Shown in pieces: positions 1 through 64,000 of a DNA stretch of 64,000 bases. The translations under genes and the position numbers were made by a program. Positions within the stretch are counted from its first letter, which is position 1, and each line of letters opens with the position of its first letter. The notes under the pieces were generated by a model, which was not told where the DNA came from, did not search any database, and worked only from the letters and a program-made list of their open reading frames with translations. Origin of the DNA: an uncultured bacterium (lineage in GTDB: Bacteria > Patescibacteriota > JACMRA01); the NCBI GenBank assembly GCA_963704645.1, contig OY969926.1, positions 160,001 through 224,000 of the forward strand, read 5' to 3'.

Positions 1-364
1 TTGTTGGAGTGTATTTCTTACCTACTTCAATTCCTTTACTATTTAAGATGTACTTTTTAACACCTGATTTTAAATCTGATACTAAACTAATAAAAGCAGT
101 TCTTGTTGGATCGTATTCTACAGTTAAAACTTTAAATCCTTCTGGGAAGTTTCTTTTGAAATCTACTTCTCTTACTAATTTACTTGCTCCACCACCTTGG
201 TGTCTTACAGTAATTTTACCACTAGCATTTCTTCCAGCAGCTCTAGTTTTACGAACTAAAAGTTTTTTGAAGGGTTTATCTGTTGTAAGAAACTCCTTAT
301 AGTTAATTACAGAAGTTTTTCTTCTGGCATTTGTTGTTGGTTTATATAATTTAATGGAAGCCAT
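1..364 (-). CDS. rplB: 50S ribosomal protein L2 (5' part, runs off window start)
   Basis: Manual translation from ATG at 364: MASIKLYKPTTNARRKTSV...AAGRNASGKITVRHQGGG...VEYDPTRTAFISL, the uL2 signature; not in ORF track because truncated. Confidence 0.95.
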   Translation of the reverse strand, partial: MASIKLYKPTTNARRKTSVINYKEFLTTDKPFKKLLVRKTRAAGRNASGKITVRHQGGGASKLVREVDFKRNFPEGFKVLTVEYDPTRTAFISLVSDLKSGVKKYILNSKGIEVGKKYTPT

Positions 365-372
365 ATTAATTC

Positions 373-642
373 TTATTTTGCTTTCTTACCACCATGGCCT
401 TTAAAAATTGTTGTTGGAGAAAATTCACCTAATTTGTGGCCAACCATATCTTCTGTTACAAAAACATCTATAAATTTCTTACCATTGTGCACACCAAAAG
501 TTACACCTACAAAATCAGGTAAAATTGTGCTGGAACGATACCAAGTTTTTAAAGTGGTTTTGTTTCCATCAGCTTTAAGTTTGGTAACTTTGCTTATTAG
601 TTTTAGATCGCAATATGGACCTTTTTTTAATGAACGTGACAT
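373..642 (-). CDS. rpsS: 30S ribosomal protein S19
   Basis: [10 protein letters not shown]...[15 protein letters not shown]...VHNGKKF...[12 protein letters not shown]. Confidence 0.98.
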
Positions 643-645
643 ATT

Positions 646-936
646 CTATATTTCAATTGGTTTATCATTACTTAATGTTTGTCCAAGTTTTAATTTTACT
701 AAATACTTTTTAGGACGAATTTGTTTAACAGTGTTTCCTCTTCTTCCTCTTACTTTTAACTTAGCGTAAGGGTTAACTACACCAATATTAACAACGTCTA
801 ATTGATTCTTTTTTAAGATATTAGATAAAGTAATTTTATTTGGCTTGTACTTTGCATCGTCAAAAGATATTGTAAAAATACCTTGCTGTTGCAAAAGATA
901 GGCTTTTTCAGTTTCGTGAACTATAATTTTTGGCAT
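646..936 (-). CDS. rplW: 50S ribosomal protein L23 (divergent)
   Basis: Follows rplD; TEKA...NK...V..VN...KK..VKL..GQ pattern. Confidence 0.85.
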   Translation of the reverse strand: MPKIIVHETEKAYLLQQQGIFTISFDDAKYKPNKITLSNILKKNQLDVVNIGVVNPYAKLKVRGRRGNTVKQIRPKKYLVKLKLGQTLSNDKPIEI

Positions 937-948
937 ATTTATAATATT

Positions 949-1575
949 CTATATTTGGTTAAGCTTAGATTCTAAAACTTCTCTAGCAGCTTTTGTTAGA
1001 ACCAAGTTTTCCTTGTTAGCTAGTTTAAAGATTTTTAAATTGGTTACATTCATTAAAAATACATCTGTATTTCCAAAGCCTTTTAAAGTGTCTTTTTCTG
1101 CAGTTGTATAAGAAAGTATAGATTTCCTTTCAATTATCCCATTAGTTTCTAATAATTGAATTGCAGACTTTGTTTTTACTAAATCTAGTCCATCTTCTAA
1201 TTGATAAACTTTCTGGTCTACTAATCTGTCTTTAAGAATAGATTTAAGGGCAGCAACTCTGGCAGATTTGTTAATTTTTCTGTTCCAGTTTCTATCTGAT
1301 CTAGGACCAAAGGCTACACCACCACCAACCCAAATAGGTGAACGAGTTGAACCATGTCTAGCTCTTCCTGTTCCTTTTTGTTTCCATGGTTTTCTACCTC
1401 CGCCTCTAACTTCAGCTCTAGTTTTTGTGTGAGCGTTTCCAGCCCTTTGGTTTAACAATTCGCTTCTAATAACTTCAGCTAGCAATTTTGTTCTAACTTC
1501 GTATTCGGAAAGAAATTCAAAAGCAACTTCTTGTTTGGCTTTTTTATCTGATAAGATTGTAATTTGTAGAGACAT
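949..1575 (-). CDS. rplD: 50S ribosomal protein L4
   Basis: HTKTRAEVRGGGRKPWKQKGTGRARHGSTRSPIWVGGGVAFGP. Confidence 0.98.
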   Translation of the reverse strand: MSLQITILSDKKAKQEVAFEFLSEYEVRTKLLAEVIRSELLNQRAGNAHTKTRAEVRGGGRKPWKQKGTGRARHGSTRSPIWVGGGVAFGPRSDRNWNRKINKSARVAALKSILKDRLVDQKVYQLEDGLDLVKTKSAIQLLETNGIIERKSILSYTTAEKDTLKGFGNTDVFLMNVTNLKIFKLANKENLVLTKAAREVLESKLNQI

Positions 1576-1583
1576 GTTTCTAT

Positions 1584-2183
1584 TTATTTCTTAATAACTT
1601 TTAAAATTCCTCCGTTTGGACCAGGTAAAGAACCTTTAATGAATAATAGGTTTTGTTCTAAATCTATTGCTAAAATTTTAGCTTCTCTTATTGTTTGATT
1701 TGCATTTCCGCTGTGACCAGCCATTTTTTTACCAATAACAGTTCTTTGTGGCCATCTCATACCAATAGAACCAGGAGCTCTAACGTGATCATGTCCGTGG
1801 GATGCAGGTTGTCCGTGGAAGCCCCATCTTTTAACAACACCTGTAAAACCTTTTCCAATTGTTAATCCTGTAATATCAATTTTATCGTTTACTACAAAAG
1901 CCTCAATGTTTAAATCGGTTGTTTCAGAGTCAATTTTAACTTTGAACTCTGCTACATGTTGAAAATCTGTTTCATCTTGGTGAAACTTTTGTACATGACC
2001 AGATCTTGCTTTAGTTGTTCTCTTTTTTGGGAAAGAAGCAATTTGAACAGCATCGTAACCATCTTTAACAGATTCTTTTCTTTGTAGAATAAACTGCTTA
2101 TTAAACTCTATAGCAGTTACAGGAAGAGCTCTGCCTTCCACAAAAATTCTTGTCATTCCTAATTTTTTCGCAAAACCGTACAT
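1584..2183 (-). CDS. rplC: 50S ribosomal protein L3
   Basis: KLGMT...DGYDAVQ...GKGFTGVVKRWGF...PGSIG...KMAGHSG...GSLPG. Confidence 0.98.
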   Translation of the reverse strand: MYGFAKKLGMTRIFVEGRALPVTAIEFNKQFILQRKESVKDGYDAVQIASFPKKRTTKARSGHVQKFHQDETDFQHVAEFKVKIDSETTDLNIEAFVVNDKIDITGLTIGKGFTGVVKRWGFHGQPASHGHDHVRAPGSIGMRWPQRTVIGKKMAGHSGNANQTIREAKILAIDLEQNLLFIKGSLPGPNGGILKVIKK

Positions 2184-2214
2184 ATATCTTATATTTTCTT
2201 GTATTTCTTAATAA

Positions 2215-2526
2215 TTAAATTGTTTCAATGTTTATCTCTACACCGGCTGGCAAAGAAAGAGTAGATAAATTATTTACTACTTCACTGCTAACGTCGTTAA
2301 TATCAATTAATCTTTTATGAACTCTAGATTCTAGTTTATCTTTAGATTTTTTGAAAACGAAAGTAGCACGGTTAATAGTGATAATTTTCTTTCTTGTTTT
2401 AAGTGGCACAGGGCCAATAACTTTAGCTCCTGACTTAATAATAACTTGGACTAGCTTTTTTATAGCTTCTTCAAGTACTTTATGGTCAAAAGAATAAACT
2501 CTAACTCTCATTTTGGTTCCAGACAT
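2215..2526 (-). CDS. rpsJ: 30S ribosomal protein S10
   Basis: SFDHKVL...GPVPL...HKRLIDI...LPAGVEI. Confidence 0.95.
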   Translation of the reverse strand: MSGTKMRVRVYSFDHKVLEEAIKKLVQVIIKSGAKVIGPVPLKTRKKIITINRATFVFKKSKDKLESRVHKRLIDINDVSSEVVNNLSTLSLPAGVEINIETI

Positions 2527-2648
2527 ATTGGTTAATAGGTAGCAGTATTAATAAGTAAAAGAGGAAACATAGTTTGTCAAGCACACACAACTTAAAGACA
2601 TTTTAAGGGGAGAATATTTAATTACTTTATATCGTTTTTAATCTATAA

Positions 2649-3512
2649 TTATACTCTAACTATTTTATTTATACTGGCTGGAATATTGGCTTGGATTTTA
2701 GACAAATTAGAAATAAAGTTTCTGCAAATTGTTTCAGGCGTAGCTAAAGAACCTAAGCAAAGCCTATTCATAGCTGTTTGCTCCAAGTTCAACTTTGGAT
2801 AATCTTCCTTAACAATAAATTGGGTTGGGTTATTTATATTCAAGTATTTATAGGCAGAAATAATTGGCCCTATTAAGCTAGAATAATCTAAAACGGTGAA
2901 GCTAATATTTTTTGGTAGTAGACTTTCTAAAATTTTTAAATCTGGGTTCTTAGATTTCAAACTGTAGACTTTTACTTCATCTTTAGTAATGTATATTTCT
3001 AAGGGCCAACCTGTTCTTAACAAACCTTCATGTGACTGATAAATTGATAAGTTCGATGTTTCTGTAAATTCCAAATCATTTATCCTTGTTACTGGAAAAG
3101 AGTTTTTATGAATTAAATAATAATCATCCACCTCTTCAAAATTATTGTCGTCACTAGAAAAAATAGATTTAGGAAAATGCATCCAGCCTAAATTACTATC
3201 TACGTTAAAATGAAACAAATTAGGCCCAGGAGAAAATAATTTAACCAGATTTTTAGCCCATGAAGGCAAGACTGATTCTGTTAAATACTTATCTAAATTA
3301 CTATGAATTTTAATTAATTCTTTAATTTCTGGGAATGTTTTGTTTGAAGATTCATTATCTTCTAAATTTTTAGAAAATGCCAAGCTTTCAGTAATAACAA
3401 CCTGATTGTTTATGCTTTTTTTAGTTTTTGTTTCTTTGAGATCTAGGGTTTTTAAAAATTGCATACTTTTTTGTGATGGCATATAGTAAGCATAAAAAAA
3501 TTCTTTTGACAA
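2649..3512 (-). CDS. Hypothetical protein, possibly degenerate Sua5/TsaC2-like
   Basis: LVKLFSPGP resembles the YrdC FWPGPLT motif and LGSLATPETICRNFISNLSKI resembles the Sua5 C-terminal domain; catalytic motifs not seen; start uncertain. Confidence 0.4.
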   Translation of the reverse strand: MSKEFFYAYYMPSQKSMQFLKTLDLKETKTKKSINNQVVITESLAFSKNLEDNESSNKTFPEIKELIKIHSNLDKYLTESVLPSWAKNLVKLFSPGPNLFHFNVDSNLGWMHFPKSIFSSDDNNFEEVDDYYLIHKNSFPVTRINDLEFTETSNLSIYQSHEGLLRTGWPLEIYITKDEVKVYSLKSKNPDLKILESLLPKNISFTVLDYSSLIGPIISAYKYLNINNPTQFIVKEDYPKLNLEQTAMNRLCLGSLATPETICRNFISNLSKIQANIPASINKIVRV

Positions 3513-3580
3513 GAAGAAATAAAAAGCCCTTGTTACAAACTACAAACTGTAATTGCCGCACTTAAATAGTGTCTTTTGAT

Positions 3581-4432
3581 ATGAATCTACTATTTACCAG
3601 TACACTTATAATTATTTTAGCTATCATGGGGATAGTTTTAATTATAAATTATTTAATAATTTCTTGGGAAAGCCAAAAAGTTGATGCTTTAGCAAGCCAA
3701 ATTAAACATTCAAGCTACGAAGAAAATTCCATTCTATATAAAAGCGATGTTAGTAGAGAATTTACCAGTTTAGATTTAATTAAAGTTAGTAAGGCCGGCA
3801 TAAATAAAGCAACTAACATATATGATAAAACATTGGTTAAAATTACCAGCCAAGAATACCCAAACTGGATTAACAGAGTGGTAGAGGAATTAACTAAACT
3901 TCGCCAAAACTTTATTAAAACTGTCAGAGGCTGGATAAAATACATAGTTTCATTAAGCAAACCAGCTGTTGAAGAAACCAAACACGATAAAGTTAATGCT
4001 TTCAGGGAAAAAATAAAAATGGAGGAAATAGAAGATTTTGTAGATAAAGTTGTTGATAATAATTTATCTCAGGCTAACTCTTTAACAGTTTTAGAAGACC
4101 AAAGCTTATCTAAATTAGATGAAAAAATGGATGTAGCCGATAATTCCACTTTAGAAAATAAAACTGCAACACTAAACCTTGCTTCCAACCCAAACAGAGC
4201 TGCCCAGGCTGGAGAAGGTGCTGGAATTTTTGAAAAACTAGAAAATAGAATTTTGCAGAAAATGAAAGATGTAGGCTTAGGAAATTATGATTTATGGTTA
4301 GAACTAGGACAACTATATTTAAAATACGGAGAGAAAGAAAAAGCAGTTGAGGTTTTTGCATTAGTTTTAAAACACACTCAGGATGAAGGTCAAAAAGATT
4401 TAGCCAGAAACCAATTAATAGGACTTAACTAA
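3581..4432 (+). CDS. Membrane-anchored protein with C-terminal TPR
   Basis: N-terminal TM; WLELGQLYLKYGEKEKAVEVFALVL TPR-like motif; ORF track starts at GTG 3569. Confidence 0.7.
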   Translation: MNLLFTSTLIIILAIMGIVLIINYLIISWESQKVDALASQIKHSSYEENSILYKSDVSREFTSLDLIKVSKAGINKATNIYDKTLVKITSQEYPNWINRVVEELTKLRQNFIKTVRGWIKYIVSLSKPAVEETKHDKVNAFREKIKMEEIEDFVDKVVDNNLSQANSLTVLEDQSLSKLDEKMDVADNSTLENKTATLNLASNPNRAAQAGEGAGIFEKLENRILQKMKDVGLGNYDLWLELGQLYLKYGEKEKAVEVFALVLKHTQDEGQKDLARNQLIGLN

Positions 4433-4433
4433 T

Positions 4434-5012
4434 ATGATAGCTTTTATTTCTGGGAAAGTAATTCACAGGCAAATAGATTCTGTAGTAATTAAAACTACTT
4501 CAGGACTTGGTTATATAGTGCAGGTTTCACCTAATTCAAACATTTTGCTAAACGAAACATTAGAGCTTTATATTTACCATTCAATAAACCGAGAAGGAGA
4601 GCAAAACTTATTTGGATTCGACAGTTTTAGCTTACGTGATTGGATGATAAAGCTATTACAAGTTCCAGGAGTTGGCCCAAAAATGGCAGCCACTATAGTA
4701 TTTAATTTAGGCGAAAGAATTGGCCAAATTTTGCAACTAGGAGATTTAGACCAATTGCAAGAAATTAAAGGTCTAGGAACTAAAACAGCCAAGAAAATTT
4801 TATTAGAATTCCAAGGAAAGAATTTTGATTTGAACAGCGCTTTAAATAACAGCCCATTTGCCCTACAGTTTTCCGACGGTTTAAAAAACTTAGGATACAA
4901 ACAAAACGAAATTGTAACCAGTATTACCCAATTAAAAACCCTAGAAAAATGGGACGAAGAAAATTTAGGCGAAACGTTAAGGTGGGGGTTGAAGTTGTTG
5001 TCTAAGAAGTAG
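4434..5012 (+). CDS. ruvA: Holliday junction branch migration protein RuvA
   Basis: MIAFISG...GLGY...LFGF...VPGVGPKMA...IKGLGTKTAKKILLE...LGY. Confidence 0.95.
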   Translation: MIAFISGKVIHRQIDSVVIKTTSGLGYIVQVSPNSNILLNETLELYIYHSINREGEQNLFGFDSFSLRDWMIKLLQVPGVGPKMAATIVFNLGERIGQILQLGDLDQLQEIKGLGTKTAKKILLEFQGKNFDLNSALNNSPFALQFSDGLKNLGYKQNEIVTSITQLKTLEKWDEENLGETLRWGLKLLSKK

Positions 5013-5015
5013 AAT

Positions 5016-5038
5016 GTAGGGGCGATCCCCGCGTCGCC
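5016..5038 (+). repeat. REP-like GTAG-hairpin element, copy 1
   Basis: GTAGG-GGCGA-TCCCCGCG-TCGCC, 3 nt after the ruvA stop; the first 11 nt are identical to the copy at 42935. Confidence 0.55.
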
Positions 5039-5125
5039 ATTTAGACTTTTGAATTGAAACTATATTGTTACCGTCGAAGCTTGGAATTAATATACAAACA
5101 GTATAAAGTAGAAAATAATTTACAA

Positions 5126-5668
5126 CTAGTTATACTCCTCTAGTTTTTCTAAACTAGATACCCTACCCCTACCATACGGTGCGTAAAATTCAACTTTATT
5201 TCCGTGCTCGTCTTTACTTTCCCAATTAATCCACAAATCTTTTTTGTCATGGTTTAAAGAAAGCCTTTCCATATAATCTTTTAAGCTTATATCATGAGTT
5301 TTTAAATTTTCACTAATACTTTGGATAATTGTTTTTGTTGCCATGTTAACAGCTTGTATTATGGCGTTATACAACTCAGCAGGATTTTCTTGATTGCTTT
5401 GTTCTTTTAAGAAGTCTGGGTCTATTTCTATTTGATGAATTAAAAAGTTGAAATCCATTGCAACTAAGACTTTAACTTTATCTGCAAAACCAAGAATTAC
5501 AGGGCTAGTCTCTTCTAGTAATAATTGTTTAAGTTTTAACTGATTGTCCCACCTACCTTCAGCCTTCAGTTTATCTATTTCTGAGTCTAAAAATAGTAAA
5601 CCAACTACATAGTCTTGATAACGGTTGTTTATAATGTATCTTCCAAAAGATCTAAAAAAAGTTTGCAT
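5126..5668 (-). CDS. Hypothetical protein (paralog of 5728..6255; YbaB/EbfC-like central segment)
   Basis: Shares MD[FY]NF.I.Q and W..WE..DE..NK.EFYAP with its neighbour; IEIDPDFL...LYNAIIQAVNMA resembles YbaB. Confidence 0.6.
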   Translation of the reverse strand: MQTFFRSFGRYIINNRYQDYVVGLLFLDSEIDKLKAEGRWDNQLKLKQLLLEETSPVILGFADKVKVLVAMDFNFLIHQIEIDPDFLKEQSNQENPAELYNAIIQAVNMATKTIIQSISENLKTHDISLKDYMERLSLNHDKKDLWINWESKDEHGNKVEFYAPYGRGRVSSLEKLEEYN

Positions 5669-5727
5669 ATTCCTGAATTTATTATTTTGATTTAATTTTT
5701 TGTACTGAAATGAGTTTATAATTTTAT

Positions 5728-6255
5728 TTAAGCAGCAAGCGTTGTAACTTCAATATTATAATTTGGAGCGTAAAATTCTATTTTATTTTGGTTTTCATCC
5801 AAAGCTTCCCAATACAACCAAGTTTTACTTTTGTCAGTTTTTTTGGCAATTTTATTAATAAATTCTGCCATACTAATTTCGTTCGTTTGCAGCTCTTTCT
5901 GAATAGACAGTATAGTTTGGTTTATTGCAGTTTTAATTGCTAACTTTTGCTCTTCAGTTTCAACAGTCCAACCTCCTGGTTTATAATCTGGTTGAAAATA
6001 TTTACTATCTAACTGTGTTTGGTAAATCATAAAGTTATAATCCATCATAATGGTTATTCTGATTTCCGATAAAAACCTTTTAATGTTTTGATTTGATGCA
6101 GAAACAAATAAGTTATACAAATAACTTTCTCGCTTGGTATAAGCACCGTCGTCTATTTCATTAATTTCTTTATCAAAAATTGCTAAAATAATTGAATACC
6201 GATCTTCTTTTTCATCAACTAGGTGGGTGTTAACATTTCTAAACAGACAGTACAT
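5728..6255 (-). CDS. Hypothetical protein (paralog of 5126..5668)
   Basis: 175-aa ORF, visibly aligned with the downstream gene. Confidence 0.6.
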   Translation of the reverse strand: MYCLFRNVNTHLVDEKEDRYSIILAIFDKEINEIDDGAYTKRESYLYNLFVSASNQNIKRFLSEIRITIMMDYNFMIYQTQLDSKYFQPDYKPGGWTVETEEQKLAIKTAINQTILSIQKELQTNEISMAEFINKIAKKTDKSKTWLYWEALDENQNKIEFYAPNYNIEVTTLAA

Positions 6256-6281
6256 AATCAGTCTTATAAGTTAACTTTTTC

Positions 6282-6295
6282 TTGACATTTGTCAA
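6282..6295. promoter_or_regulatory. Inverted TTGACA pair (-35 boxes on both strands or operator)
   Basis: TTGACATTTGTCAA between the divergent genes 5728..6255 and 6391..6720. Confidence 0.45.
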
Positions 6296-6390
6296 AATAA
6301 AATGCCAATATATATATCATACTATTTTATATGTGTTTAGTTAATTCTAAATTGCATTAAGTTAGTTACTAAAACCGATTTTTGGAGGAA

Positions 6391-6720
6391 ATGACGATGC
6401 CCTGGGATAAATTTTGGAGTAAAGGAGATCATGTTGATTCTAAAGTTGGCATTGATCTGAGCAATGGGGACATGACGACATTAACGAGAGGTGTGGAACA
6501 TCGTGGAAACAAAGATGATTACCCTCACATGAGTTTCACCGTTGATATCCATGGTCAAGTCACCAATGCCCACTATTCAAACTCTAAACATGCTTCTGAT
6601 AGAGTGGGAACTGATTCTCAAGAATGGAGAAAACCAGAATATGATTCTAACCACAATACTGATTATTCTGGACATGAAACAGACTATGGTGCAAGTAAAG
6701 GGTTGGGTGATAAATATTAA
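6391..6720 (+). CDS. Small His/Asp-rich hypothetical protein
   Basis: GGAGG at 6384-6388 before ATGs at 6391/6397; followed by a terminator. Confidence 0.65.
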   Translation: MTMPWDKFWSKGDHVDSKVGIDLSNGDMTTLTRGVEHRGNKDDYPHMSFTVDIHGQVTNAHYSNSKHASDRVGTDSQEWRKPEYDSNHNTDYSGHETDYGASKGLGDKY

Positions 6721-6785
6721 AAGTACATATCACTGAGTCTTTTAGGTTTCCAATATCCAACAAAAGTAGCAAGTCTACAATTTCT

Positions 6786-6813
6786 GCCTAAGCTTTAAGT
6801 TTAGGCTTTTTTT
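6786..6813 (+). terminator. Intrinsic terminator
   Basis: GCCTAAGCT-TTA-AGTTTAGGC followed by T7. Confidence 0.75.
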
Positions 6814-6921
6814 ATTTCACAATTTTAGTTTACGTGCTTTTTATTAAATCTAAAATTCCCCCCCCACAAAAAATCCCCCATAATCTTGACAAAGCAAACC
6901 CTGCTGGCTAATTACTTTAAC

Positions 6922-8895: not shown

Positions 8896-8902
8896 ATAGT
8901 TT

Positions 8903-10274: not shown

Positions 10275-10670
10275 TTACCCTACATCATTTCTGAAATCTT
10301 TATAATACTTCTGATCTATTTCTTTCCAATTATATGGAGCATTTGGATTATTATGTATAGCAGCAGCCTCAGCCATTTCATCAATAGAATAATCTATCGC
10401 AACACATACACCATTTTTATATGTATTTTTGATATAATCATTTCCATACTTATACCTCATCATTCCATCCAAAGAACGTCTCATTCCTGCAGCAGCAAGA
10501 TAAACACTTGCTTGATCGCTAGTAAGATTTTTAGATGCCCATTTTACCCAATATTCCATATCGGTACCTGAATAATCTTTTGAATAATACTTTACCAGTT
10601 CTTTAGCATGGCTTGGCTTGGTATTTGTCAAACCTTCAGACCATCCAAGACCTCCATCTTTAGTAGGTGT
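10275..10670 (-). pseudogene. Orphan Rhs C-terminal toxin fragment, lysozyme/SLT-like
   Basis: Frame is open upstream of TTG 10631 as TPTKDGGLGWSEGLTNTKPSHA; later NLTSDQASVYLAAAGM...AAAIHN resembles SLT motifs. Confidence 0.5.
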
Positions 10671-10674
10671 AAGC

Positions 10675-10834
10675 GGTAGTTTTTATCACTTTGGCCATTG
10701 GATTTAGTTGTTCCGACAACAGAGTCTAGGGCGTCGTGGAAGTAGAAAGTAGTTTGGCCAGATAGTTTGTCTAAAGAGAACAATATTGACTGGTTTGTGG
10801 AATCTCTAAATATGTCTGTTTCCTGTTTGTTTTG
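10675..10834 (-). repeat. ~160-bp diverged direct repeat of Rhs core DNA (other copy ~13496-13656)
   Basis: QNKQETDIFRDSTNQSILFSLDKLSGQTTFYFHDALDSVVGTTKSNGQSDKNYR is near-identical to the Rhs core; the DNA aligns by eye. Confidence 0.95.
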
Positions 10835-10852
10835 AACCACACTAAAATTATA

Positions 10853-27157: not shown

Positions 27158-27161
27158 CATT

Positions 27162-33969: not shown

Positions 33970-34045
33970 GCCGGTGTGGCTTAGCTGGTATAGCGGCGGT
34001 ATCGTAAACCGCAGGTCGCAGGTTCGAACCCTGTCACCGGCTCCA
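33970..34045 (+). tRNA. tRNA-Thr(CGT)
   Basis: Cloverleaf GCCGGTG...CACCGGC-T-CCA, anticodon loop ATCGTAA, TTCGAAC T-loop. Confidence 0.95.
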
Positions 34046-46357: not shown

Positions 46358-46786
46358 TCTCAAACTAAACTTAATTGTTCTTTTAATAATTCAAGCTTGT
46401 TATTCCAAACACGATATTTTCCTGCATGTGGTTCTAGTCCATACTTGGCTTCTAATGGCATTCTAGTATTGTAAAAATAATTGATTTATACAGTTCCAAA
46501 TACTCATTTATAGATTTCTTAGAAAACAAGTCAGGGTTTTTCAAACATTCTTTCAAAGCATCAGTGGATAGTTGCAAGTCTTTAATTCTAAAATGATCAC
46601 TAAGACTGTTTAATACAGCTAAGTTTGATTTTGCTCAGCTTTTAAATAGGACCTTAGAGATTCTCTGTTATGACGTTTTATACTTTTATGTTTGTAATAA
46701 TAAGCTAATGTAGCAACAAAACCAAGCACAAAACCAACTATTGTTTCAAACACTCGATCAAATTAGTGAAAGAACATCTGGAACAT
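46358..46786 (-). pseudogene. Decayed TM-anchored helical protein gene next to the tRNA-Gln 3' end
   Basis: Pieces FDRVFETIVGFVLGFVATLAYYYK...LRSYLKAE / NLAVLNSL...STDALKECLKNPDLF...LELYKSII / YNTR...; one in-frame stop and two frameshifts. Confidence 0.45.
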
Positions 46787-46833: not shown

Positions 46834-46907
46834 TGGTTCGGGAATAGGGATTCGAACCCCAATAGTTGGTACCAGAAACCAAAGTCCTACCATTAGACGA
46901 TTCCCGA
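46834..46907 (-). tRNA. tRNA-Gln(CTG)
   Basis: Minus strand: TCGGGAA...TTGGT-TTCTGGT-ACCAA...GGTTCGAATCC...TTCCCGA-A-CCA. Confidence 0.95.
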
Positions 46908-55096: not shown

Positions 55097-55127
55097 ATTG
55101 CGGTTTTAAGAACTGGATATAATTTAT

Positions 55128-55493: not shown

Positions 55494-55496
55494 AGT

Positions 55497-55730
55497 TTAA
55501 ACTAGGTTTTGCTTTTTAAAAAGACTTTGTACAGATTCTGAAGTTTCAGTATTCAAAGCAACATAGTGCTTTACTCTGTCTTCTTGTAATTTAACTTCTT
55601 TAGTAATTGGATTGTACCATCCTAAAATTTCTAAAAACTTCTTACTAACAAATCTGTGCTTTTCAGCTACAACTACGCGGTAAAATTTTCTGTGTTTGCG
55701 TCCAATTGGTTGGAATCTAATAGTTAACAT
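55497..55730 (-). CDS. rpsP: 30S ribosomal protein S16
   Basis: MLTIRFQPIGRKHRKFYRVVVAE...LEILGWYNP. Confidence 0.95.
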   Translation of the reverse strand: MLTIRFQPIGRKHRKFYRVVVAEKHRFVSKKFLEILGWYNPITKEVKLQEDRVKHYVALNTETSESVQSLFKKQNLV

Positions 55731-55746
55731 ATAAATATAAATTGAA

Positions 55747-56379: not shown

Positions 56380-56391
56380 ATATAATTAATT

Positions 56392-56793
56392 TTAAACTCT
56401 TCGTCTTTTACTTGGTTTTGTTCCTCCAAATGGAAATCCTGTTGCGTCTTTGATGGAATCTAATTGTAGGTCTGTCGCTTGAATTGCTCTTAGAAATGCA
56501 TCTCTAGCCATTCCTGCACCTTTAATAACAATTTGTGCATTCGTAGCTTCAAGCTGCTTTACTCTTTCTAAAATAGTTTCTGTTGCTTTTTGAGCAGCAA
56601 AAGGTGTTTTCTTCTTCGCACCTTTAAAATTGCTACTGCCACTACTTGCCCATGCTAAAACCTTACCTTCTAAATCGGTTAAAGTGATGATAGAGTTATT
56701 AAATTGTGCACGCATGCAAATTCTTACAATAGGTAATTTCTGCTTGATCTTAGTTTTTCTAACGTTTAGTTTTGGATTCGCCTTTTTGGCCAT
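56392..56793 (-). CDS. rpsK: 30S ribosomal protein S11
   Basis: FNNSIITLTD...WASSG...KKTPFAA...KRRRV. Confidence 0.96.
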   Translation of the reverse strand: MAKKANPKLNVRKTKIKQKLPIVRICMRAQFNNSIITLTDLEGKVLAWASSGSSNFKGAKKKTPFAAQKATETILERVKQLEATNAQIVIKGAGMARDAFLRAIQATDLQLDSIKDATGFPFGGTKPSKRRRV

Positions 56794-56837
56794 ATTAATA
56801 TAATCTTAATTTTCTTAGTATTGATGGTTGTCAAGTA

Positions 56838-57224
56838 TTAGGTTTTTTGAGCCTTAACTTTTCCACTTCCTGCAGTATTTCTTGTATTGCCTCTTGCAGT
56901 TCTGGAATTGGTCTTTGTTCTTTGGCCTCTTACAGGTAGGTGAACTTTATGTCTTTTGCCTCTCCAAGTACCAATATCAATTAATCTTTTAATATTTGTA
57001 AGATTCTGCCTTCTTAAATCAGCTTCAATAATTAAATTGTTTTCAATGTAACTTCTAATTGTAGCTACTTCAGTTTCGCTTAATGAATCTAGCTTAATTG
57101 TTGGATCTAACTTTAATTCAGCTAAAATATTTTTAACGTTAGATTTACCCACACCTTTAATAATTGGAAGTGCGAATCTAATTTGTTTTTGGCCGTCAAC
57201 GGTGACGCCGGCTATTCTAATCAT
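56838..57224 (-). CDS. rpsM: 30S ribosomal protein S13
   Basis: RIAGV...IKGVG...WRGKRH...LPVRGQRTKTNSRT. Confidence 0.98.
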   Translation of the reverse strand: MIRIAGVTVDGQKQIRFALPIIKGVGKSNVKNILAELKLDPTIKLDSLSETEVATIRSYIENNLIIEADLRRQNLTNIKRLIDIGTWRGKRHKVHLPVRGQRTKTNSRTARGNTRNTAGSGKVKAQKT

Positions 57225-57230
57225 AATAAT

Positions 57231-57419
57231 TTAGTATTTTAATCTTTTCTTTTTCTTCAAAGGAATTGGCTGTCTAGCATTAATACGATTACCTAATGAT
57301 GACTCATCAAAAGCGTAGAAACGTAAAATTCCTTGTCTACGTGTAAAGTAACCTTGGGCCATTCTACCACGTCTAGTTAATTTTTTACCTCTTCCGGTAA
57401 GGGATACAACAACTTTCAT
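57231..57419 (-). CDS. rpmJ: 50S ribosomal protein L36, atypical Cys-free extended form
   Basis: Between infA and rpsM; MKV..SL...RR.G...N..NARQ skeleton. Confidence 0.7.
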   Translation of the reverse strand: MKVVVSLTGRGKKLTRRGRMAQGYFTRRQGILRFYAFDESSLGNRINARQPIPLKKKKRLKY

Positions 57420-57422
57420 ATA

Positions 57423-57716
57423 TTAGTCTCTAGAAATAATTACGCCTTTCGTCAAATCTTCCATAGGATCAACCTCTACAGTAACGCTGTCACCTTTCAA
57501 AATTTTAATTCTTCTTACCTTAAAAAGTGTCTTGGTTTGGCAGTCTATAATTAAAGGATCTAACCCTTTATCACGTTCTACTCTTACCTTAAATTTAACA
57601 CCTGGTAGTGCTTCAATAATTACACCTTTAAAGTAAATTCTGTCCTCTCTTTGTTCGGAATTATTATGATTCGATCTTCTCCTTTTGGATCTACTTGGAC
57701 TTGATTTAGGTTTCAC
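57423..57716 (-). CDS. infA: Translation initiation factor IF-1 with basic N-terminal extension
   Basis: GVIIEALPGVKFKV...IKILKGDSVTVEV.P..DLTKG.I..R. Confidence 0.9.
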   Translation of the reverse strand: MKPKSSPSRSKRRRSNHNNSEQREDRIYFKGVIIEALPGVKFKVRVERDKGLDPLIIDCQTKTLFKVRRIKILKGDSVTVEVDPMEDLTKGVIISRD

Positions 57717-57764
57717 TGAATTTATAATTAATTTATATAATAATTAAAGAACAGCTGCACAATT

Positions 57765-58475
57765 ATGTCAAATAATGGCAATAAGATTGACAAAAAACCC
57801 TTACTTCAAGACTTTCATAATGAATATATGATTGCAAATATACATTTTAACCCTACTGCCCAGCAGAGCGAATCTATTAGAATGGACTACTTTAAACAAA
57901 ACATTATTAAAGAAATTCAAACCAATACAAGCAACGAAAACAATTTTAAATTATTAGACATTGGTTGTTCGCAAGACGATTTTGAAACTGATATTAAGAA
58001 CTTGGAATCCTTCGGTTTGGATATTGAAGATTCCAACTATTACGACCCAAACCATTTCCAAAAAGTTGATCTAAACAACGGTAAATTACCCTACCTAGAC
58101 AATACATTTAACTTTGTAATTGCAGGCGAAGTTTTAGAACATATTAAAAGGCCTTTTGAAATTATTGAGGAAATGGGTAGAGTTTTAAAACCTAATGGCG
58201 TTTTGTACATATCTACACCAACTCCACACTGTTTAACAGAAATTGCTAAGGAGATAATTGGATCTAAAAAAGTTGATGTTCCTAACCAACATTTAAACCT
58301 ATTTGGAAGAACTCATTTAATAGCCTACGCAGAGCAACAAGGCATGACTTTAGAGAAGTACTATCATTACAAATTCTACCTTCCTTTACCTGGCAACAAC
58401 CATATTATTGTAACTAGCCTGTTTACCCCTCCACTTTTTGGATATCAAATTATTTACAAATTTAGGAAGAATTAG
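57765..58475 (+). CDS. Class I SAM-dependent methyltransferase
   Basis: LLDIGC...GLDI...LPYLDNTFN...EVLEHI...RVLKPNG...STP; the start may be ATG 57828. Confidence 0.9.
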   Translation: MSNNGNKIDKKPLLQDFHNEYMIANIHFNPTAQQSESIRMDYFKQNIIKEIQTNTSNENNFKLLDIGCSQDDFETDIKNLESFGLDIEDSNYYDPNHFQKVDLNNGKLPYLDNTFNFVIAGEVLEHIKRPFEIIEEMGRVLKPNGVLYISTPTPHCLTEIAKEIIGSKKVDVPNQHLNLFGRTHLIAYAEQQGMTLEKYYHYKFYLPLPGNNHIIVTSLFTPPLFGYQIIYKFRKN

Positions 58476-58795
58476 TTTTAGGAAAATAGACTAAATGCAC
58501 TTATAAAAGTGTTAAATTAACTGACACTCCTAAAAATTCATTTTTGATTACATGATGAACCGCTATGATTTGAATAATCAAAACGATTACTTGAGTTTAT
58601 AGAGTCATTATTTGCTTAATATTTTCCAGGAATAAAGAATTTGATTTATTAAGAAAATTTATATTCCTAAGAAAACAGCCCGTTAAATTCTGTAAATTTA
58701 CCACCTCCCTCCAGAAGGGAATTTTTAGTTTCACAAGAACTTCTTCATTGTTTAAACAAAAAGATTTAATTTCATATTGCCTTTCTCTGCCAGAT

Positions 58796-61237
58796 CTACT
58801 TCCTATAGGAATTAATTACAAAAACTACCAGAGCCACAAAAATTGTGTAGAAACCATACGTTCCAATAAAATCTACAGTATTTAAGTTTATTAACCTTTC
58901 TAAGATTGGATTAGAAATTGTTATTTTGGTTACCGCCAAGTGAAGAATAAACATTGTAATAATTGCACCAAAGCCAGCAAAAATTAAGAATTTAGAGTAA
59001 TTTTTATATTTGAAAGATAGTATTAGAAGACCTAAAACAAAAGATATTCTTAAACCAAAAATAAGATAAGAAATTAATATAAACAAAACTAATATAAGTG
59101 CAAACCAGTAATTATTATTAACATACTTTTCAGCATATTTAGAATAAATTACTATGCATTTGTTAAAATATTGGTTAATTAATTTTAAAATTTTAGAAGT
59201 TGTTGAGTTTTTAAAATTATTCAAATATTCTTCAATTTTAGCTTTGTTTCTTAACCAAAAATATTTCGATAAAGTATATATTAGGATAATTAAAAAGCCA
59301 ATTAATATAGCCATTTTTTGAGCTAAAATATTGTAATGAGTTATACTAAAATTGGAGTCTGTACAACTAGAAGCACAACTTACTACCCAAACTTTATTTT
59401 GATAAGTATCTCGATATTCAAAAATAGTATCTAAAGTGTTAGAGGAATTTAGACTTACAAAAACCAATGGCTGGAAACTTGAGCTGACTACAAATCTATC
59501 TGAATTTTGATAATTACTATTGGATAATCCTACTTTGAATTGAGACTGAAATGTTGTTTCTTTTGCTTCATTCAAAGCCAGCGGATTATTTTGGCTGGCA
59601 GAGTTTTCTTTGGTGAAAAAATAGTTCTGCAAATCTTTAGGTAAACTTTGAGATAACCATAATTGCTTAATTTCAAAGCCAACATCTTCAGGCTTATTAA
59701 TTTCCAAATACGTCCCCGATACTTTAATATTTGCCGGATCTAAAACTGCATTAAATTTGTTCGAACCAATTTTAGATTTGGTGGTAAAATTAACTGTGTT
59801 GGAGCTAGCAAAATTAACTGCCAAATTTATAATATTTTCTTTCTTACCACCTTCGGAATTGTATACAGTATTTTGAGTGTTGTATTCAAGTTCTAAATTA
59901 TACAAAAAATTAGCATTCGGAACGAAATCTGCACTTAAAGCTAAACAGAAAGTTTGGTTTTCTAACAAAGCAAAATCTAAATCTTTAAAATTTAACCAAT
60001 TATAATTTAAGGAATTTTCATTATTTTTAAGTAGTTTAGTAAGGTCGCAACTGTTTAAAAAAGCGTTTTGATAGCTTAATCTGTAATTCTTAAAATATTC
60101 ATCATTATTAAGAATCTCTGCCTTGCCTGACGGTAATTCAGCCTTTGTATCTATTTCTAATGTTAAATTATCATTGTATTTCGGCAATATTTCGGCAATA
60201 TTTTCAAATTTTAATTTAGTAAGTTTTAAATTATTAACTTGAATATTTAAGCTTTGCCAGTCTTCAATAGAATTTATAGAGAATTGGAAATACTCCATAC
60301 CACCATTTTTTACACTAATTAATTGGCTGTATTCTGTTGGGGTATTTTTTATTAAGGCTGTTTTACCAATACTTTGAACCTGTTCGGAATTTTCTAAATT
60401 TAGCTTTTCTTCGTTGTCAGATAACTTAAAATTATATGCGGAATAAGCCAAATTATTGCTATTCAAATTAAAACTGGCTAAATATATTCCATTTTGTTGA
60501 AAGCTTTCAGGATAGTTTTTTGAAAAACAAGTTCTTGGGTTTTTAGTTCCAGCTTTTTCCTTTAAATTTAGATTGCAACTTAATGGGCTGGCAATGTAAT
60601 TTGAGGAAGAATTTTGATTTATAGAATAAACTAGTATTTTGTTATTTTGAAGTTCTCCAAAACTAATAAATTTACCATCTGTATAAGTTTCTAATTGTAT
60701 TCCTTCGTAATCTGATAGATACAAATATTTGCCAGAAGAAATATTGTCTATACTGGCCACAACTGTTTCTGGGACATAGTTTGTTTTATCTTGAACTTTA
60801 AAACTAAACTTGGGCAGTACAAAAGTTATCTGCCGCAAAACATTGTTGTATTTAATTTCTAAAATACTATTGGAATTTAATTTGTAGTTAAGACCAAAAT
60901 TTTGCTTATCCGGAAAAGGATTATAAATTGACCAATTCTTATTTAAAAAATCTTGACTTGGAACTGTGCTAATATTTTTTGCAACTTGGGATAGATAATT
61001 TAGCTCATCTTTACTGGCAATATCTGTTTTATCTGGATAAATAAGCACAGTATTGTTTTTAGGCTTAGCCTTGGAAGGATCTTGGGCAACTAATAAACTA
61101 TCAATTTGTCCACTAACTCTTATAGAGTTTAAGGGTGAATTCGACCAGGATGAATAGCTTACAAAACTACAAACTAGAAGAATTAAGCCTATAATAAAAG
61201 ACTCTAGGTAGTTTAAGCTTGGTTTGGTAAAAGACAT
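58796..61237 (-). CDS. Large membrane protein with big extracellular domain (surface-glycosylation cluster)
   Basis: N-terminal TM, long Asn/Ser-rich beta region, several C-terminal TMs; start uncertain (61237/61264/61309). Confidence 0.65.
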   Translation of the reverse strand: MSFTKPSLNYLESFIIGLILLVCSFVSYSSWSNSPLNSIRVSGQIDSLLVAQDPSKAKPKNNTVLIYPDKTDIASKDELNYLSQVAKNISTVPSQDFLNKNWSIYNPFPDKQNFGLNYKLNSNSILEIKYNNVLRQITFVLPKFSFKVQDKTNYVPETVVASIDNISSGKYLYLSDYEGIQLETYTDGKFISFGELQNNKILVYSINQNSSSNYIASPLSCNLNLKEKAGTKNPRTCFSKNYPESFQQNGIYLASFNLNSNNLAYSAYNFKLSDNEEKLNLENSEQVQSIGKTALIKNTPTEYSQLISVKNGGMEYFQFSINSIEDWQSLNIQVNNLKLTKLKFENIAEILPKYNDNLTLEIDTKAELPSGKAEILNNDEYFKNYRLSYQNAFLNSCDLTKLLKNNENSLNYNWLNFKDLDFALLENQTFCLALSADFVPNANFLYNLELEYNTQNTVYNSEGGKKENIINLAVNFASSNTVNFTTKSKIGSNKFNAVLDPANIKVSGTYLEINKPEDVGFEIKQLWLSQSLPKDLQNYFFTKENSASQNNPLALNEAKETTFQSQFKVGLSNSNYQNSDRFVVSSSFQPLVFVSLNSSNTLDTIFEYRDTYQNKVWVVSCASSCTDSNFSITHYNILAQKMAILIGFLIILIYTLSKYFWLRNKAKIEEYLNNFKNSTTSKILKLINQYFNKCIVIYSKYAEKYVNNNYWFALILVLFILISYLIFGLRISFVLGLLILSFKYKNYSKFLIFAGFGAIITMFILHLAVTKITISNPILERLINLNTVDFIGTYGFYTIFVALVVFVINSYRK

Positions 61238-61247
61238 TGAGTTGTGC

Positions 61248-63566
61248 TTATTTATTATGTCCATAAAATTTATTTTTCCATTTGTAAATAACAAAAGACA
61301 ACAAAACAATAGCGTAAATTGCCATAATTTCTTCGAAAACTACTTGTGGTTTATACCACAATTCTAAACTTAAATTGTAAGTACCGTCTTCATTTTTTTG
61401 GCAGTAATTTAGCGAACAATTTTGCTCCAATTCTGAAAAATTAATATCCCAAGTATTGTTAAATCCTCTTCCTTTATAGTGATTAAATATACTATCTGAA
61501 AGTAAATATTTCTGATTAGGCTCTGTTAAATTCCAGCTACCAAAACTATATTGAAATTCTAATGTAGCGTTTTTACTTATATTGTTAACCTGTAAATTAT
61601 AGTGAGTTGGATTAATTTTATTTATATTAAGACTTCCACTGGAAACATAAAAACTTCTAGCCTGCTTAAATTTATAAACTGTGAAATAGCTATTTTCAAA
61701 AATTTTGTTATCTTTGTAATTGTCATCAATTTTTTGTATTAAACTATTTTTTTCCTCTTCAGAAGTAATTCTGTACCAACTATAATTTGGAATGAATTGT
61801 TTATCTACAAGTATTGTATCTATGCTTAAACTTTCAATTCTTTCCTGGAACTGGCTTGGGTTTGTAGCCATTAAATCGTACAATTTAATAATACTATTTT
61901 CGTCTTCAGATGGAAGAGTTCTTATAGACAAAACGGAATGACTGCAATTTTGATTAAAAATATCGTTACTTAGAACCTGCTTATTGGAAATGTTCGTAAA
62001 ATGAAGGAAATCGTAGCTGTAAGGAAATTTAATTGTTCTAAAGGAATTGTTTTTTAAGAAATCGCAGGTCTGGGAATATTCTGGCGCAAGTTCAACCTGA
62101 CCGTATGGGGAGACAAAATATTGAGTTGAGAAAAAGCCCAAATAGAAAATGTTGATAACCAGTAGGAATATATTTACCGCAAGCTTAAGTTTTTCGGTTT
62201 TTATTAAAGTATAAGCTGAAGATATAGCAAGCAAAATTAGTAAAATAAAAATAATTCCAAACTTAGCATCTAAATAGCGATAAAGTAAAAATACTGACGG
62301 CACTATTTTATAAATTAAACCAAAGAACTGTAACAAAGGTCCTTGAAACATACCCATGGTAGCAACCCCGAACATTGCAGCCAAAGAAGTTATAGCGTAT
62401 AGCTTTACTTTGCTATTGTCTTGGGTTTCAGGAATATTGCTCTCTAAACCTTCTTTTTTTAGCTCTACTACTTCAATTTTTTGATTAAGATTTTTGTGAC
62501 TTCTAAATTTTGCTATCCAATTTTTAATCTGAGTTGTGTGCAATTTTTGGAATAGTGGCAATAATATAATTACGAAAAGACCTAAATTAAAATAACTTAA
62601 CCAGGCGTAAACGCCAAAAACATTGTTAATTTTTGCGTTAGCCAGTCTTAATAGGCTTTCTTGACTGTAAGAGTCGGTTCTAATTTGGGATTCCAAAAAA
62701 TAATCTAATTTTAAAATATTATTTAAATTGAATCTAGCCTTACCAAGTTCATACCAAGACAATATAAAATCTCCACCAAATGCGTTGCTAGAATTATAAA
62801 TATAACTAGAAACTTCTCTGTTTATTAACAGTATTTGAAGTAAAATTGGTATAAAAACTACAATGTTAATTGCAACCACTTTTGAAATTTTTGCTAAATT
62901 AAACCTTGTATAAACTAAACTTAAAAGCAGGGTTAAAGAAATTACTAAGGCGTAATTAATAATGGAAGTTGGGTGAGCAAAACTTACTTGGAGGAAGAAT
63001 AAAGTTGAAGCCAAAGCCAATTGCCATTTTAAGCCATTTTCTTTTACTACTTTTAAAGTAAAGTAACAAGCCAAGGGTAGGAACCCCCATAAAAAATTCT
63101 GCCCCAAAATTGTTCTGTATACATTCATTTGGGCTTCAATAGAAATAATATAAATTAAAGCAAGCAAATAAATATTAAAATTTGAAGTGTTTTTAGTTAC
63201 TTCTTTTAAAAACAAAAAGGCCCCCCAAAATGCAGCCTGGACCAAAGCTATCATCATTACATCCACTCCTCTTTCTGGCCCAAAAATGAAACTAAAAATT
63301 GAATAGACAATATAATTTAAGTAATAGCCGTAGACCCCAAACCCAAACCTTTCTTGGAAGAAATAGAAGGAGGAATTAAAAATATTTTTATCTTGAAGCA
63401 AAATTGTTTGATCCCAGTAAAATGTAAAAACATTATCGAAGGGGTTATACAAATAAAAAGCTATGGCAACTGGTATTAAAGCTGCTAATATTTTAAGACG
63501 ATTTGGGTTTAATGCAATAGGCTGAAGAGCTGCAAAAAACTTCTTAAATTCTATATTAAAATTCAT
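61248..63566 (-). CDS. GT-C-like polytopic membrane glycosyltransferase (AftD/YfhO-like)
   Basis: About 11-12 N-terminal TMs, FLLYRYLDAKF, extracellular KINPTHY...GFNNTW...YKPQ, final TM. Confidence 0.6.
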   Translation of the reverse strand: MNFNIEFKKFFAALQPIALNPNRLKILAALIPVAIAFYLYNPFDNVFTFYWDQTILLQDKNIFNSSFYFFQERFGFGVYGYYLNYIVYSIFSFIFGPERGVDVMMIALVQAAFWGAFLFLKEVTKNTSNFNIYLLALIYIISIEAQMNVYRTILGQNFLWGFLPLACYFTLKVVKENGLKWQLALASTLFFLQVSFAHPTSIINYALVISLTLLLSLVYTRFNLAKISKVVAINIVVFIPILLQILLINREVSSYIYNSSNAFGGDFILSWYELGKARFNLNNILKLDYFLESQIRTDSYSQESLLRLANAKINNVFGVYAWLSYFNLGLFVIILLPLFQKLHTTQIKNWIAKFRSHKNLNQKIEVVELKKEGLESNIPETQDNSKVKLYAITSLAAMFGVATMGMFQGPLLQFFGLIYKIVPSVFLLYRYLDAKFGIIFILLILLAISSAYTLIKTEKLKLAVNIFLLVINIFYLGFFSTQYFVSPYGQVELAPEYSQTCDFLKNNSFRTIKFPYSYDFLHFTNISNKQVLSNDIFNQNCSHSVLSIRTLPSEDENSIIKLYDLMATNPSQFQERIESLSIDTILVDKQFIPNYSWYRITSEEEKNSLIQKIDDNYKDNKIFENSYFTVYKFKQARSFYVSSGSLNINKINPTHYNLQVNNISKNATLEFQYSFGSWNLTEPNQKYLLSDSIFNHYKGRGFNNTWDINFSELEQNCSLNYCQKNEDGTYNLSLELWYKPQVVFEEIMAIYAIVLLSFVIYKWKNKFYGHNK

Positions 63567-63681
63567 ATTGATTCTTAAAAGACTGATAAATCTAACATGC
63601 CAGCAATTCCTGGGTTGGTCAAATAACTAAGTTTACTGTCCTTATTTTGACCATACTATTTTTTTCTAACACATTCATTTT

Positions 63682-64000
63682 ATGCATAAAAAAGAAATTG
63701 CCGAATTAATTGGAGAAACTAAAAATATAATTAATTCATCTAATTTTGAACAATTAAAAAGTACATTACAGGACTTGCAAAACCAAATGCAAGACCCTGA
63801 AATTTGGGCTAATGACAGAAATATAAATGGCAGTGGAAACGAACTTTCCAAAAAAGCCAAAAGCTTGGAAGTCAAAATAAAATTGCTGGAAAATTTAAAT
63901 TCAGCAGTTACAGACATTGAGGCTGCGGAAGATTTAGGCGAAGAGGAACTTTTAAATACAGCCATAAGTAACCTACAGAAAGTGAGGGCTAATTATCAAC
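63682..64000 (+). CDS. prfB: Peptide chain release factor 2, 5' part (runs off window end)
   Basis: Manual translation MHKKEIAEL...LQNQMQDPEIWAND...; RF2-type M..P..W.D motif; continuous frame with no CTT-TGA shift site. Confidence 0.7.
   Translation, partial: MHKKEIAELIGETKNIINSSNFEQLKSTLQDLQNQMQDPEIWANDRNINGSGNELSKKAKSLEVKIKLLENLNSAVTDIEAAEDLGEEELLNTAISNLQKVRANYQ

Follow-up and report, generated by a model that had tools for sequence, protein, structure and literature searches.

UGA as a working but rarely used, and probably avoided, stop codon in an uncultured bacterium of the Patescibacteriota

The stretch of DNA analyzed here (the window, 64,000 nucleotides of contig OY969926.1) covers bases 160001-224000 of the genome of an uncultured bacterium of the Patescibacteriota, a single contig of 1,272,640 bp with 33.4% G+C that we call G000. 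At its right-hand edge begins prfB, the gene for release factor 2 (RF2), and our subject is how rarely the genes of this genome stop at TGA. An initial annotation of the window had counted 38 TAA, 20 TAG and no TGA stops in 58 genes and had concluded that UGA is unused, that termination is centred on release factor 1 (RF1), and that the genome is in an intermediate state before reassignment of UGA. Gene calls in our analysis are based on open reading frames (ORFs) throughout: we took the longest ORFs of at least 60 amino acids (aa), greedily and without overlap, and for the 59 that lie wholly inside the window this mechanical call gives the same counts plus one, a 70-aa ORF ending in TGA that the annotation had already set aside (Table 1). 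Pfam has no match for this ORF, which is probably a fragment or a spurious frame. It overlaps by four bases (10628-10631) a 118-aa ORF on the same strand (10275-10631, minus strand, TAA stop) for which Pfam has no match either, and this pair of abutting ORFs (10275-10840) could be a split gene or two small genes. The long frames that had been read as intact under code 11, those of the RHS-repeat protein, DnaE and the class I aminoacyl-tRNA synthetase, are indeed intact.

Table 1. Stop-codon census and features of the window, with positions counted from its first base
Feature	Position	Strand	Remarks
Stop-codon census	1..64000		38 TAA, 20 TAG and 1 TGA in 59 ORFs of at least 60 aa
ORF of 70 aa ending in TGA	10628..10840	-	the window's only TGA-ending ORF of at least 60 aa; coding score 0.069 (low)
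RHS-repeat protein, 2455 aa	12529..19896	-	intact under code 11; TAA stop
DnaE (DNA polymerase III alpha), 949 aa	22281..25130	+	intact; TAG stop
tRNA-Thr(CGT)	33970..34045	+	one of the window's two tRNAs; does not read UGA
Stop-to-stop frame of 41 aa ending in TGA	46360..46485	-	in the spacer before tRNA-Gln; no gene signs; the fragment placed by the initial annotation at about 46358
tRNA-Gln(CTG)	46834..46907	-	the window's other tRNA; does not read UGA
Class I aminoacyl-tRNA synthetase (IleRS-like), 1225 aa	50405..54082	-	intact; TAG stop
prfB (RF2), 5' part	63682..64000	+	gene continues to genome position 224773, 773 bases beyond the window

Genome-wide, the claim that UGA is unused fails. 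TGA is the stop of 56 in 1186 ORFs when the minimum length is set at 60 aa, of 36 in 1035 at 100 aa, of 19 in 804 at 150 aa (the remainder being 469 TAA and 316 TAG) and of 8 in 411 at 300 aa, and a set of 400 homology-validated ORFs, each with a homologue covering at least 70% in sampled relatives, divides into 229 TAA, 166 TAG and 5 TGA. What stands is that UGA is close to vacant, at about 1.3-2.4% of stops, but not absent. With TAG at 36-42% across the length cut-offs, the stops of this genome are about 1-2% TGA, about 39% TAG and about 58% TAA. At the rate of 19 in 804, a run of no TGA in 58 genes has a probability of 0.25, so in this respect the window does not stand out from the genome as a whole. 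From the lowest to the highest quintile of coding score the share of TGA is 8.2, 3.9, 2.9, 0 and 2.4%, with TAG flat at 35-44%; TGA-ending ORFs have lower coding scores (0.100 vs 0.153, p = 3e-5) and are also shorter. Because the TGA share drops with coding score and some TGA stops are artefacts, the true share in ordinary native genes is nearer 1% than 2.4%. Clustering of TGA-ending genes in islands is not significant (7 neighbour pairs vs 5.7 expected, P = 0.33).

Two observations on individual TGA-ending ORFs may be added here. A 528-aa serine recombinase ORF that stops at TGA (genome 73645-75231) overlaps the 3' part of a tRNA-Ala gene (75167-75242, opposite strand), as expected for an element integrated at a tRNA. 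Three 75-aa ORFs (genome 375010-375237, 393638-393865 and 1243122-1243349) have an identical coding score and an identical stop context, TGTATATGAAACTGA, each stopping at TGA with a second TGA close behind, and they look like three copies of one repeated element.

In several conserved genes TGA sits where the protein is seen to end in relatives (denoted G001 onward). The Pfam match of TatD (665825-666748) reaches profile position 253 of 253, and its end falls within 0-6 residues of the ends of homologues that stop at TAA or TAG in the congener G001 and in G019, G034 and G018. The DegT-like aminotransferase at 402888-404168 ends within 1 residue of its G001 orthologue, and two further TGA-ending genes, at 79932-80315 and 1003298-1003945 (RAYT-like), stop where their orthologues end. 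Full-length domains are present in other TGA-ending ORFs as well, namely a class I/II aminotransferase, a GT2 glycosyltransferase, an HD_4 protein, an RNase H, a serine recombinase and a RAYT-like transposase.

Nor does TGA behave as a sense codon. When it is read as sense, ORF coverage goes from 0.853 to no more than 0.859 and the mean ORF length stays at 349.2 aa; the gain in coverage is larger when TAG or TAA is read in this way. The 49 stops that fall inside tblastn alignments of relatives' proteins to this genome comprise 29 TAA, 13 TAG and 7 TGA; these seven fall within degraded repeats, weakly aligned regions (24.6-39.2% identity) or the 5' leader of mnmA, and the sole TGA in an otherwise intact alignment (genome 148803) is upstream of the real mnmA start. 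Neither tblastn nor ORF coverage yielded a credible case of an in-frame TGA at a conserved Trp or Gly position in G000. Among the 41 tRNAs and one tmRNA that ARAGORN finds in the whole genome none has a UCA anticodon; tRNA-Trp is CCA only, and the tRNA-Gly set is TCC, GCC and CCC. The coverage check, the tblastn alignments and the tRNA search thus agree with the annotation that TGA is not a sense codon, and on this evidence the genome uses the standard bacterial code (table 11), with UGA a working stop. Two places where a long read-through frame follows TGA (389972-390457 and 1003298-1003945) were considered and rejected as signs of sense reading, the frames belonging to same-frame neighbour genes, a patatin-like gene and LeuRS. 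A separate feature of the genome, at 1179656-1184498, is a group of decayed copies from a single family of small genes, which has a homologue in G001; the copies contain several in-frame TAA, TAG and TGA codons.

One of the eight TGA-ending ORFs of at least 300 aa is an artefact, since its frame is cut by an insertion. This 385-aa ORF (1111590-1112747) covers the N-terminal portion of rpoD, which is the sole primary sigma factor gene of G000, and a one-base insertion in it, CTT-A-GCC, means that TGA is soon met. The insertion, at genome 1112703-1112709, separates 'SIRRAL' from 'ADQSRPVRLPVH'; in relatives RRALADQS is read without a break, and their rpoD genes are single open frames of 723-748 aa. 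It may reflect a mistake in the assembly, a genuine lesion or a +1 slip site, and its heptamer resembles the CUU-AGG-C site of yeast Ty1. Among public sequencing runs none of RNA was listed as matching this genome, the best DNA run shares only 0.14 of sampled words with it, and relatives' contigs do not cross the insertion. The other two Sigma70_r2 matches in G000 are open frames of 197 and 200 aa. As an observation on the gene itself, the C-terminal part of rpoD (about 1112709-1113760, frame +1) carries sigma regions 3 and 4 and then a fused domain of TsaE, the ATPase of threonylcarbamoyladenosine (t6A) biosynthesis, and the 723-748-aa frames in G001, G006, G007, G009 and G019 suggest that this RpoD-TsaE fusion is family-wide.

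The release factor genes bear directly on how UGA is read. prfB encodes 363 aa in a single frame with a TAA stop, and both motifs sought in the rest of the gene are found, SPF at residues 197-199 and GGQ at 243-245. The initial annotation was right that the gene lacks the programmed frameshift: there is one open frame of 367 aa free of internal stops, with AAT TTT GAA (N-F-E, residues 21-23) at the site of the expected CTT TGA C slip and no in-frame TGA after CTT near codon 26. However, prfB is frameshift-free in every one of the 41 genomes searched (24 more from the family, the order's one other family and 15 genomes from other classes, these last with normal TGA use), so the missing frameshift is uninformative about G000. 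The description of RF2 as divergent is correct. RF2 scores 361.9 bits against NCBIfam TIGR00020, just below the cut-off of 370, but this is not specific to RF2, as RF1 scores 374.5 bits against its own profile with a cut-off of 423.25 and so falls further below. The gene for RF1, prfA, lies at 617874-618950 on the minus strand, with PAT and GGQ present.

Compared with solved chains, residues 15-349 of RF2 give 236.6 bits to RF2 and 163.4 to RF1. In a tree of 31 RF2 sequences the class sits on a long stem (0.53), and the end branch of G000 is 0.35 against a median of 0.52; RF2 identity between G000 and G001 is 61.6%, with a median of 68.1% (quartiles 56.7-78.5%) for 159 orthologues. We see no sign in these sequences of RF2 decay in the genus; the motifs are intact and the branch length is ordinary. 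Across the class (27 genomes of 27 species) RF2 was found at E <= 1e-70 in 24, the other three being 64-79% complete. Two features of RF2 in relatives are recorded here in their own right: the codon-recognition tripeptide is SPY, not SPF, in G009 and G030, both with about 9% TGA stops, and prfB itself ends in TGA in G019 and G026, so that RF2 terminates its own synthesis there.

What force, then, shapes the stops? TGA and TAG are made up of the same bases, and a single transition separates either from TAA. Between the genes of G000 the trinucleotides TAA, TAG and TGA occur 13254, 5115 and 4487 times (58/22/20%), compared with 58/39/2.4% at stops; the share of TAA at stops is thus what neutrality predicts, that of TGA falls about eight-fold short, and TAG makes up the difference. 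Expressed as a ratio, TGA/TAG is 0.88 in intergenic sequence and 0.06 at stop sites, a gap of roughly 15-fold. TAG is in excess by another measure too, since TAG/TAA at stops (0.67) is greater than the synonymous G/A ratio in any of 12 codon pairs (0.09-0.40). The bacterial average for TAG is given as about 20% of stops whatever the G+C content (PMC8789281), and the 39% seen here is about double that. Because TAG is enriched and intergenic TGA is about as frequent as TAG, AT pressure is not the driver of TGA loss. Repetitive extragenic palindromic (REP) elements were tried as a source of the TAG excess and rejected, with 18 of 392 TAG stops in GTAGGGG[G/T] and 125 of 392 in GTAG being too few.

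Comparison of orthologues shows how freely stops are exchanged. Where G001 has TAA, G000 has 64 TAA, 42 TAG and 2 TGA; where G001 has TAG, the counts are 27, 21 and 0; and the three orthologues that stop at TGA in G001 all stop at TAA in G000. At a median protein identity of 68%, stop identity between the two genomes is almost randomised. As TGA stops have been both gained and lost between the congeners, the low share looks like a maintained, steady equilibrium rather than a one-way purge. There is also an excess of back-up stops: an in-frame stop follows within 3 codons downstream in 21 of 56 TGA-ending ORFs, compared with 242 of 1130 others (Fisher p = 0.008), which hints at leaky UGA.

The depletion can be placed against relatives, of which 28 have stop counts (from 20-230 kb sampled per genome, with ORFs shorter than 150 aa left aside) and 13 of 41 have none (G004, G012, G016, G021-G024, G029, G035, G036, G038, G040 and G041). 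The congener G001 is similarly low, with 2 TGA stops in 159. The family pool of 17 sampled genomes has 77 in 1003 (7.7%), ranging from 0/44 in G020 to 5/20 in G011; G025, from the order's other family, has 5/47, and ten genomes of other classes taken together with G025 have 95/606 (15.7%). The difference between G000 (19/804) and the family pool has a Fisher p of 2.5e-7 and that between the genus and the rest of the family one of 1.5e-10, both overstated because kin are not independent and samples are small. Family members matched in G+C (31-35%) have 6-13% TGA, so G+C content does not explain the depletion. The counts form a graded trend, from about 16% in other classes of the phylum through about 8% in the family to about 1-2% in the genus, with G000 at the low end, and low values also occur beyond the genus (G007 4/107, G018 1/26, G020 0/44). 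In these counts, then, TGA has neither a normal share across the genome of G000 nor an equally low one in most of the sampled relatives. Our literature search found no paper on TGA stop usage in Patescibacteria.

We consider it probable that G000 keeps the standard code and that UGA, though a functional stop recognised by an intact RF2, is strongly disfavoured by selection. TAA to TGA changes would keep arising and be held down in a mutation-selection balance, with TGA stops persisting mostly in short, atypical or mobile genes and being purged from ordinary ones, and with TAG fully tolerated as a stop. The cost of UGA would presumably be slow or leaky termination, arising through low or less efficient RF2, through near-cognate reading by tRNA-Trp(CCA), or both. 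RF2 may be kept because it still ends about 20-50 ORFs and because, by analogy with E. coli, it would have functions for which RF1 is no substitute. In a TGA-free E. coli with RF1 intact, RF2 could not be deleted, which its authors credit to other roles of RF2, and the same paper hypothesises that the RF2s of low-TGA genomes read UGA poorly (PMC11903333). The idea that termination here is RF1-centred survives to the extent that the TAG excess (39%) fits a leaning on RF1.

Several points weigh against selection as the explanation. The selective cost of UGA is itself inferred. There is no RF2 decay in the genus, and family members with very similar RF2 use 6-25% TGA, so that RF2 sequence does not obviously explain the drop at genus level; moreover, Ho and Hurst argue that release factor levels are a consequence of stop usage and not its cause (PMC8789281). 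The TGA-ending set behind the back-up-stop signal is contaminated by spurious ORFs and by one or more frameshift artefacts (rpoD), and a published survey describes no general selection for fail-safe stops in bacteria (PMC6764699). The relatives' samples are 20-230 kb with crude ORF calls, some of them very small (G008 2/15, G011 5/20, G015 1/15), and within one genus G020 has 0/44 but G005 has 5/44.

The codon-capture reading of the initial annotation, in which UGA is being vacated, the UGA function of RF2 is becoming dispensable and the lineage is poised for reassignment, seems to us improbable. It has in its favour the 1.3-2.4% of TGA stops, the likewise low share in G001, and the repeated reassignment of UGA among the Patescibacteriota (Gly in JAEDAM01, Trp in JAKLIH01 and GCA-2747955), which makes low-TGA code-11 lineages plausible starting points (PMC13695967, PMC13092985). 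But a vacant-codon stage needs absence, and TGA is still the stop in 19 of 804 ORFs and in 5 of 400 validated genes; TGA stops still arise and serve conserved genes (TatD, the DegT-like aminotransferase). RF2 is intact and not fast-evolving, it is found in 24 of 27 genomes of the class with no reassigned member among those searched, a UCA tRNA was not found in the genome, and the absence of a frameshift tells us nothing. The driver that codon capture invokes is AT pressure, but TAG is enriched and intergenic TGA/TAG is 0.88, and 'intermediate' is in any case a statement about what will happen, which one genome by itself cannot establish. Another explanation that we hold unlikely, to much the same degree, is that substitutions near the decoding site have shifted the preference of RF2, leaving it good at UAA and poor at UGA, so that UGA was then selected out. 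A candidate is Glu for Gln at residue 134, in the motif GGIDAEDF of helix alpha-5: G000, G001, G007, G021 and G010 have Glu, other family sequences have Gln or Met, and solved RF2 chains have Gln at the aligned position. By hand sums, TGA makes up 11 of 326 stops in the Glu genomes G001, G007 and G010 and 66 of 677 in 14 Gln or Met genomes of the family, and poor UGA reading by the RF2 of low-TGA genomes has already been proposed in print (PMC11903333). Against this, Glu occurs in only three genera and hence reflects at most three independent events, G010 with Glu has 5/60 while G020 and G018 with Gln have 0/44 and 1/26, and we found no structural or mutational evidence for a role of residue 134 in a literature search and in PMC11903333, where the positions named are S205, E167, E170 and F207. 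We regard the Gln-to-Glu association as a lead, not a result. A bolder form of the idea, to which we likewise give only an outside chance, is that the genus is in a stable, 'UGA-minimal' and RF1-tilted state with an RF2 (perhaps through the alpha-5 Gln-to-Glu change of the low-TGA genera g1 and g7) that is good at UAA and poor at UGA; if true, nature would here have its own version of the engineered UAA-biased RF2, in a lineage of the sort that gives rise to the UGA reassignments in the Patescibacteriota. A second change in RF2, His to Glu beside SPF (RETSF for RHTSF), was rejected as a cause: it is class-wide, it is also present in the TGA-rich G028, and His, Gln and Glu all occur at this position in the phylum.

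Less likely again is a neutral account in which a lineage-specific, context-dependent mutation bias or drift lowers TGA without selection on termination. Bulk TGA/TAG in G000 (36580/44763 = 0.82) is lower than in most relatives (0.73-1.67), and symbionts with small genomes have small effective populations, and both points count in its favour. However, the roughly 15-fold gap between intergenic sequence and stop sites goes beyond bulk composition, depletion is strongest in genes of typical codon usage, and the family members of matched G+C keep their 6-13% TGA. We find it hardest to credit that UGA is avoided as a result of being read by a tRNA-Trp(CCA) whose anticodon stem is weakened or only 4 bp long. 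Reduced UGA stops are described in genomes having only a 4-bp-stem tRNA-Trp(CCA), in 13 of 19 orders (PMC13092985), and E. coli tRNA-Trp needs MiaA for UGA misreading (PMC11903333). The tRNA-Trp of G000 has a U27-G43 wobble as its top stem pair and A36-A37-A38 in its loop, and a MiaA homologue is present. Yet the stem has five pairs (U27-G43 and four Watson-Crick), G001 with even less TGA has a Watson-Crick A27-U43, and G-U or U-G top pairs are also found in relatives with 8-25% TGA (G010, G009, G011 and G003). The sole true 27-43 mismatch (U-C, in G008) goes with 2/15 TGA, and among 22 genomes the type of 27-43 pair does not track TGA use. Judging from these sequences, the 4-bp-stem explanation is already largely refuted for this genus. 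Presence of MiaA was dropped as a discriminator, being found in 40 of 41 genomes. The only one of the 41 without a MiaA (IPPT) match is G011 (93% complete), which has the highest TGA share in the family sample (5/20); this single point is in the direction expected if isopentenylation of A37 (i6A37) on tRNA-Trp promotes UGA misreading.

Against known systems, a standard code with UGA avoided has its closest described parallel in the code-11 Mycoplasmatota that keep prfB, the Acholeplasmataceae including phytoplasmas, and Mycoplasmatota that keep prfB are described as having no frameshift motif and making little use of TGA (PMC12421855). Shared with them are a small low-GC genome, low TGA, a frameshift-free prfB and UGA-reassigned relatives in the phylum. 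G000 differs in belonging to another phylum, in having about 39% TAG rather than TAA-dominated stops, and in being more extreme in TGA, and unlike the Acholeplasmataceae, about whose RF2 decay the authors of PMC12421855 speculate, it has an RF2 without signs of decay. Flavobacterium johnsoniae, whose 7% of RF2-specific stops is called 'unusually low' (PMC12421855), resembles G000 in its standard code, working RF2 and few TGA stops, but it keeps the prfB frameshift and has a TGA share roughly three to five times that of G000.

Within the Patescibacteriota, UGA encodes Gly (table 25) in the class JAEDAM01 and Trp (table 4) in the Minisyncoccia family JAKLIH01 and the genus GCA-2747955 (PMC13695967, PMC13092985). 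G000 shares with these lineages the phylum, a small AT-rich genome and few or no TGA stops; however, the reassigned lineages have lost prfB, mostly have a tRNA(UCA), and carry in-frame TGA at conserved Gly or Trp positions, and none of these three is seen in G000. The engineered 'Ochre' E. coli has no TGA stops yet still needs RF2 (PMC11903333), which would explain why RF2 is retained in G000. Ochre is, however, synthetic, with UGA recognition weakened by S205P (SPF to PPF) and E170K, whereas the natural RF2 of G000 keeps SPF. G000 is a quantitative extreme of a known bias, not a new mechanism.

The case nonetheless has some practical and conceptual weight. Annotation of G000 should use code 11 and treat TGA-ending calls with some suspicion. 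Two stops that each contain a single G are treated in opposite ways, TAG having about twice its usual share and TGA lying about 15-fold below TAG, and this occurs in a phylum in which UGA has been reassigned at least three times. The family, with 0-25% TGA and near-identical RF2, forms a natural series in which to ask whether release-factor properties drive stop usage or follow it.

Two minor features of the tRNA set of G000 were seen in passing. A tRNA-Arg(GCG) is present, and ACG is absent from the ARAGORN list. The genome also has a tRNA-Ile with a UAU anticodon (1155868-1155945) and only two CAU tRNAs, so that AUA is probably read by the UAU tRNA and not by a lysidine-modified CAU tRNA.

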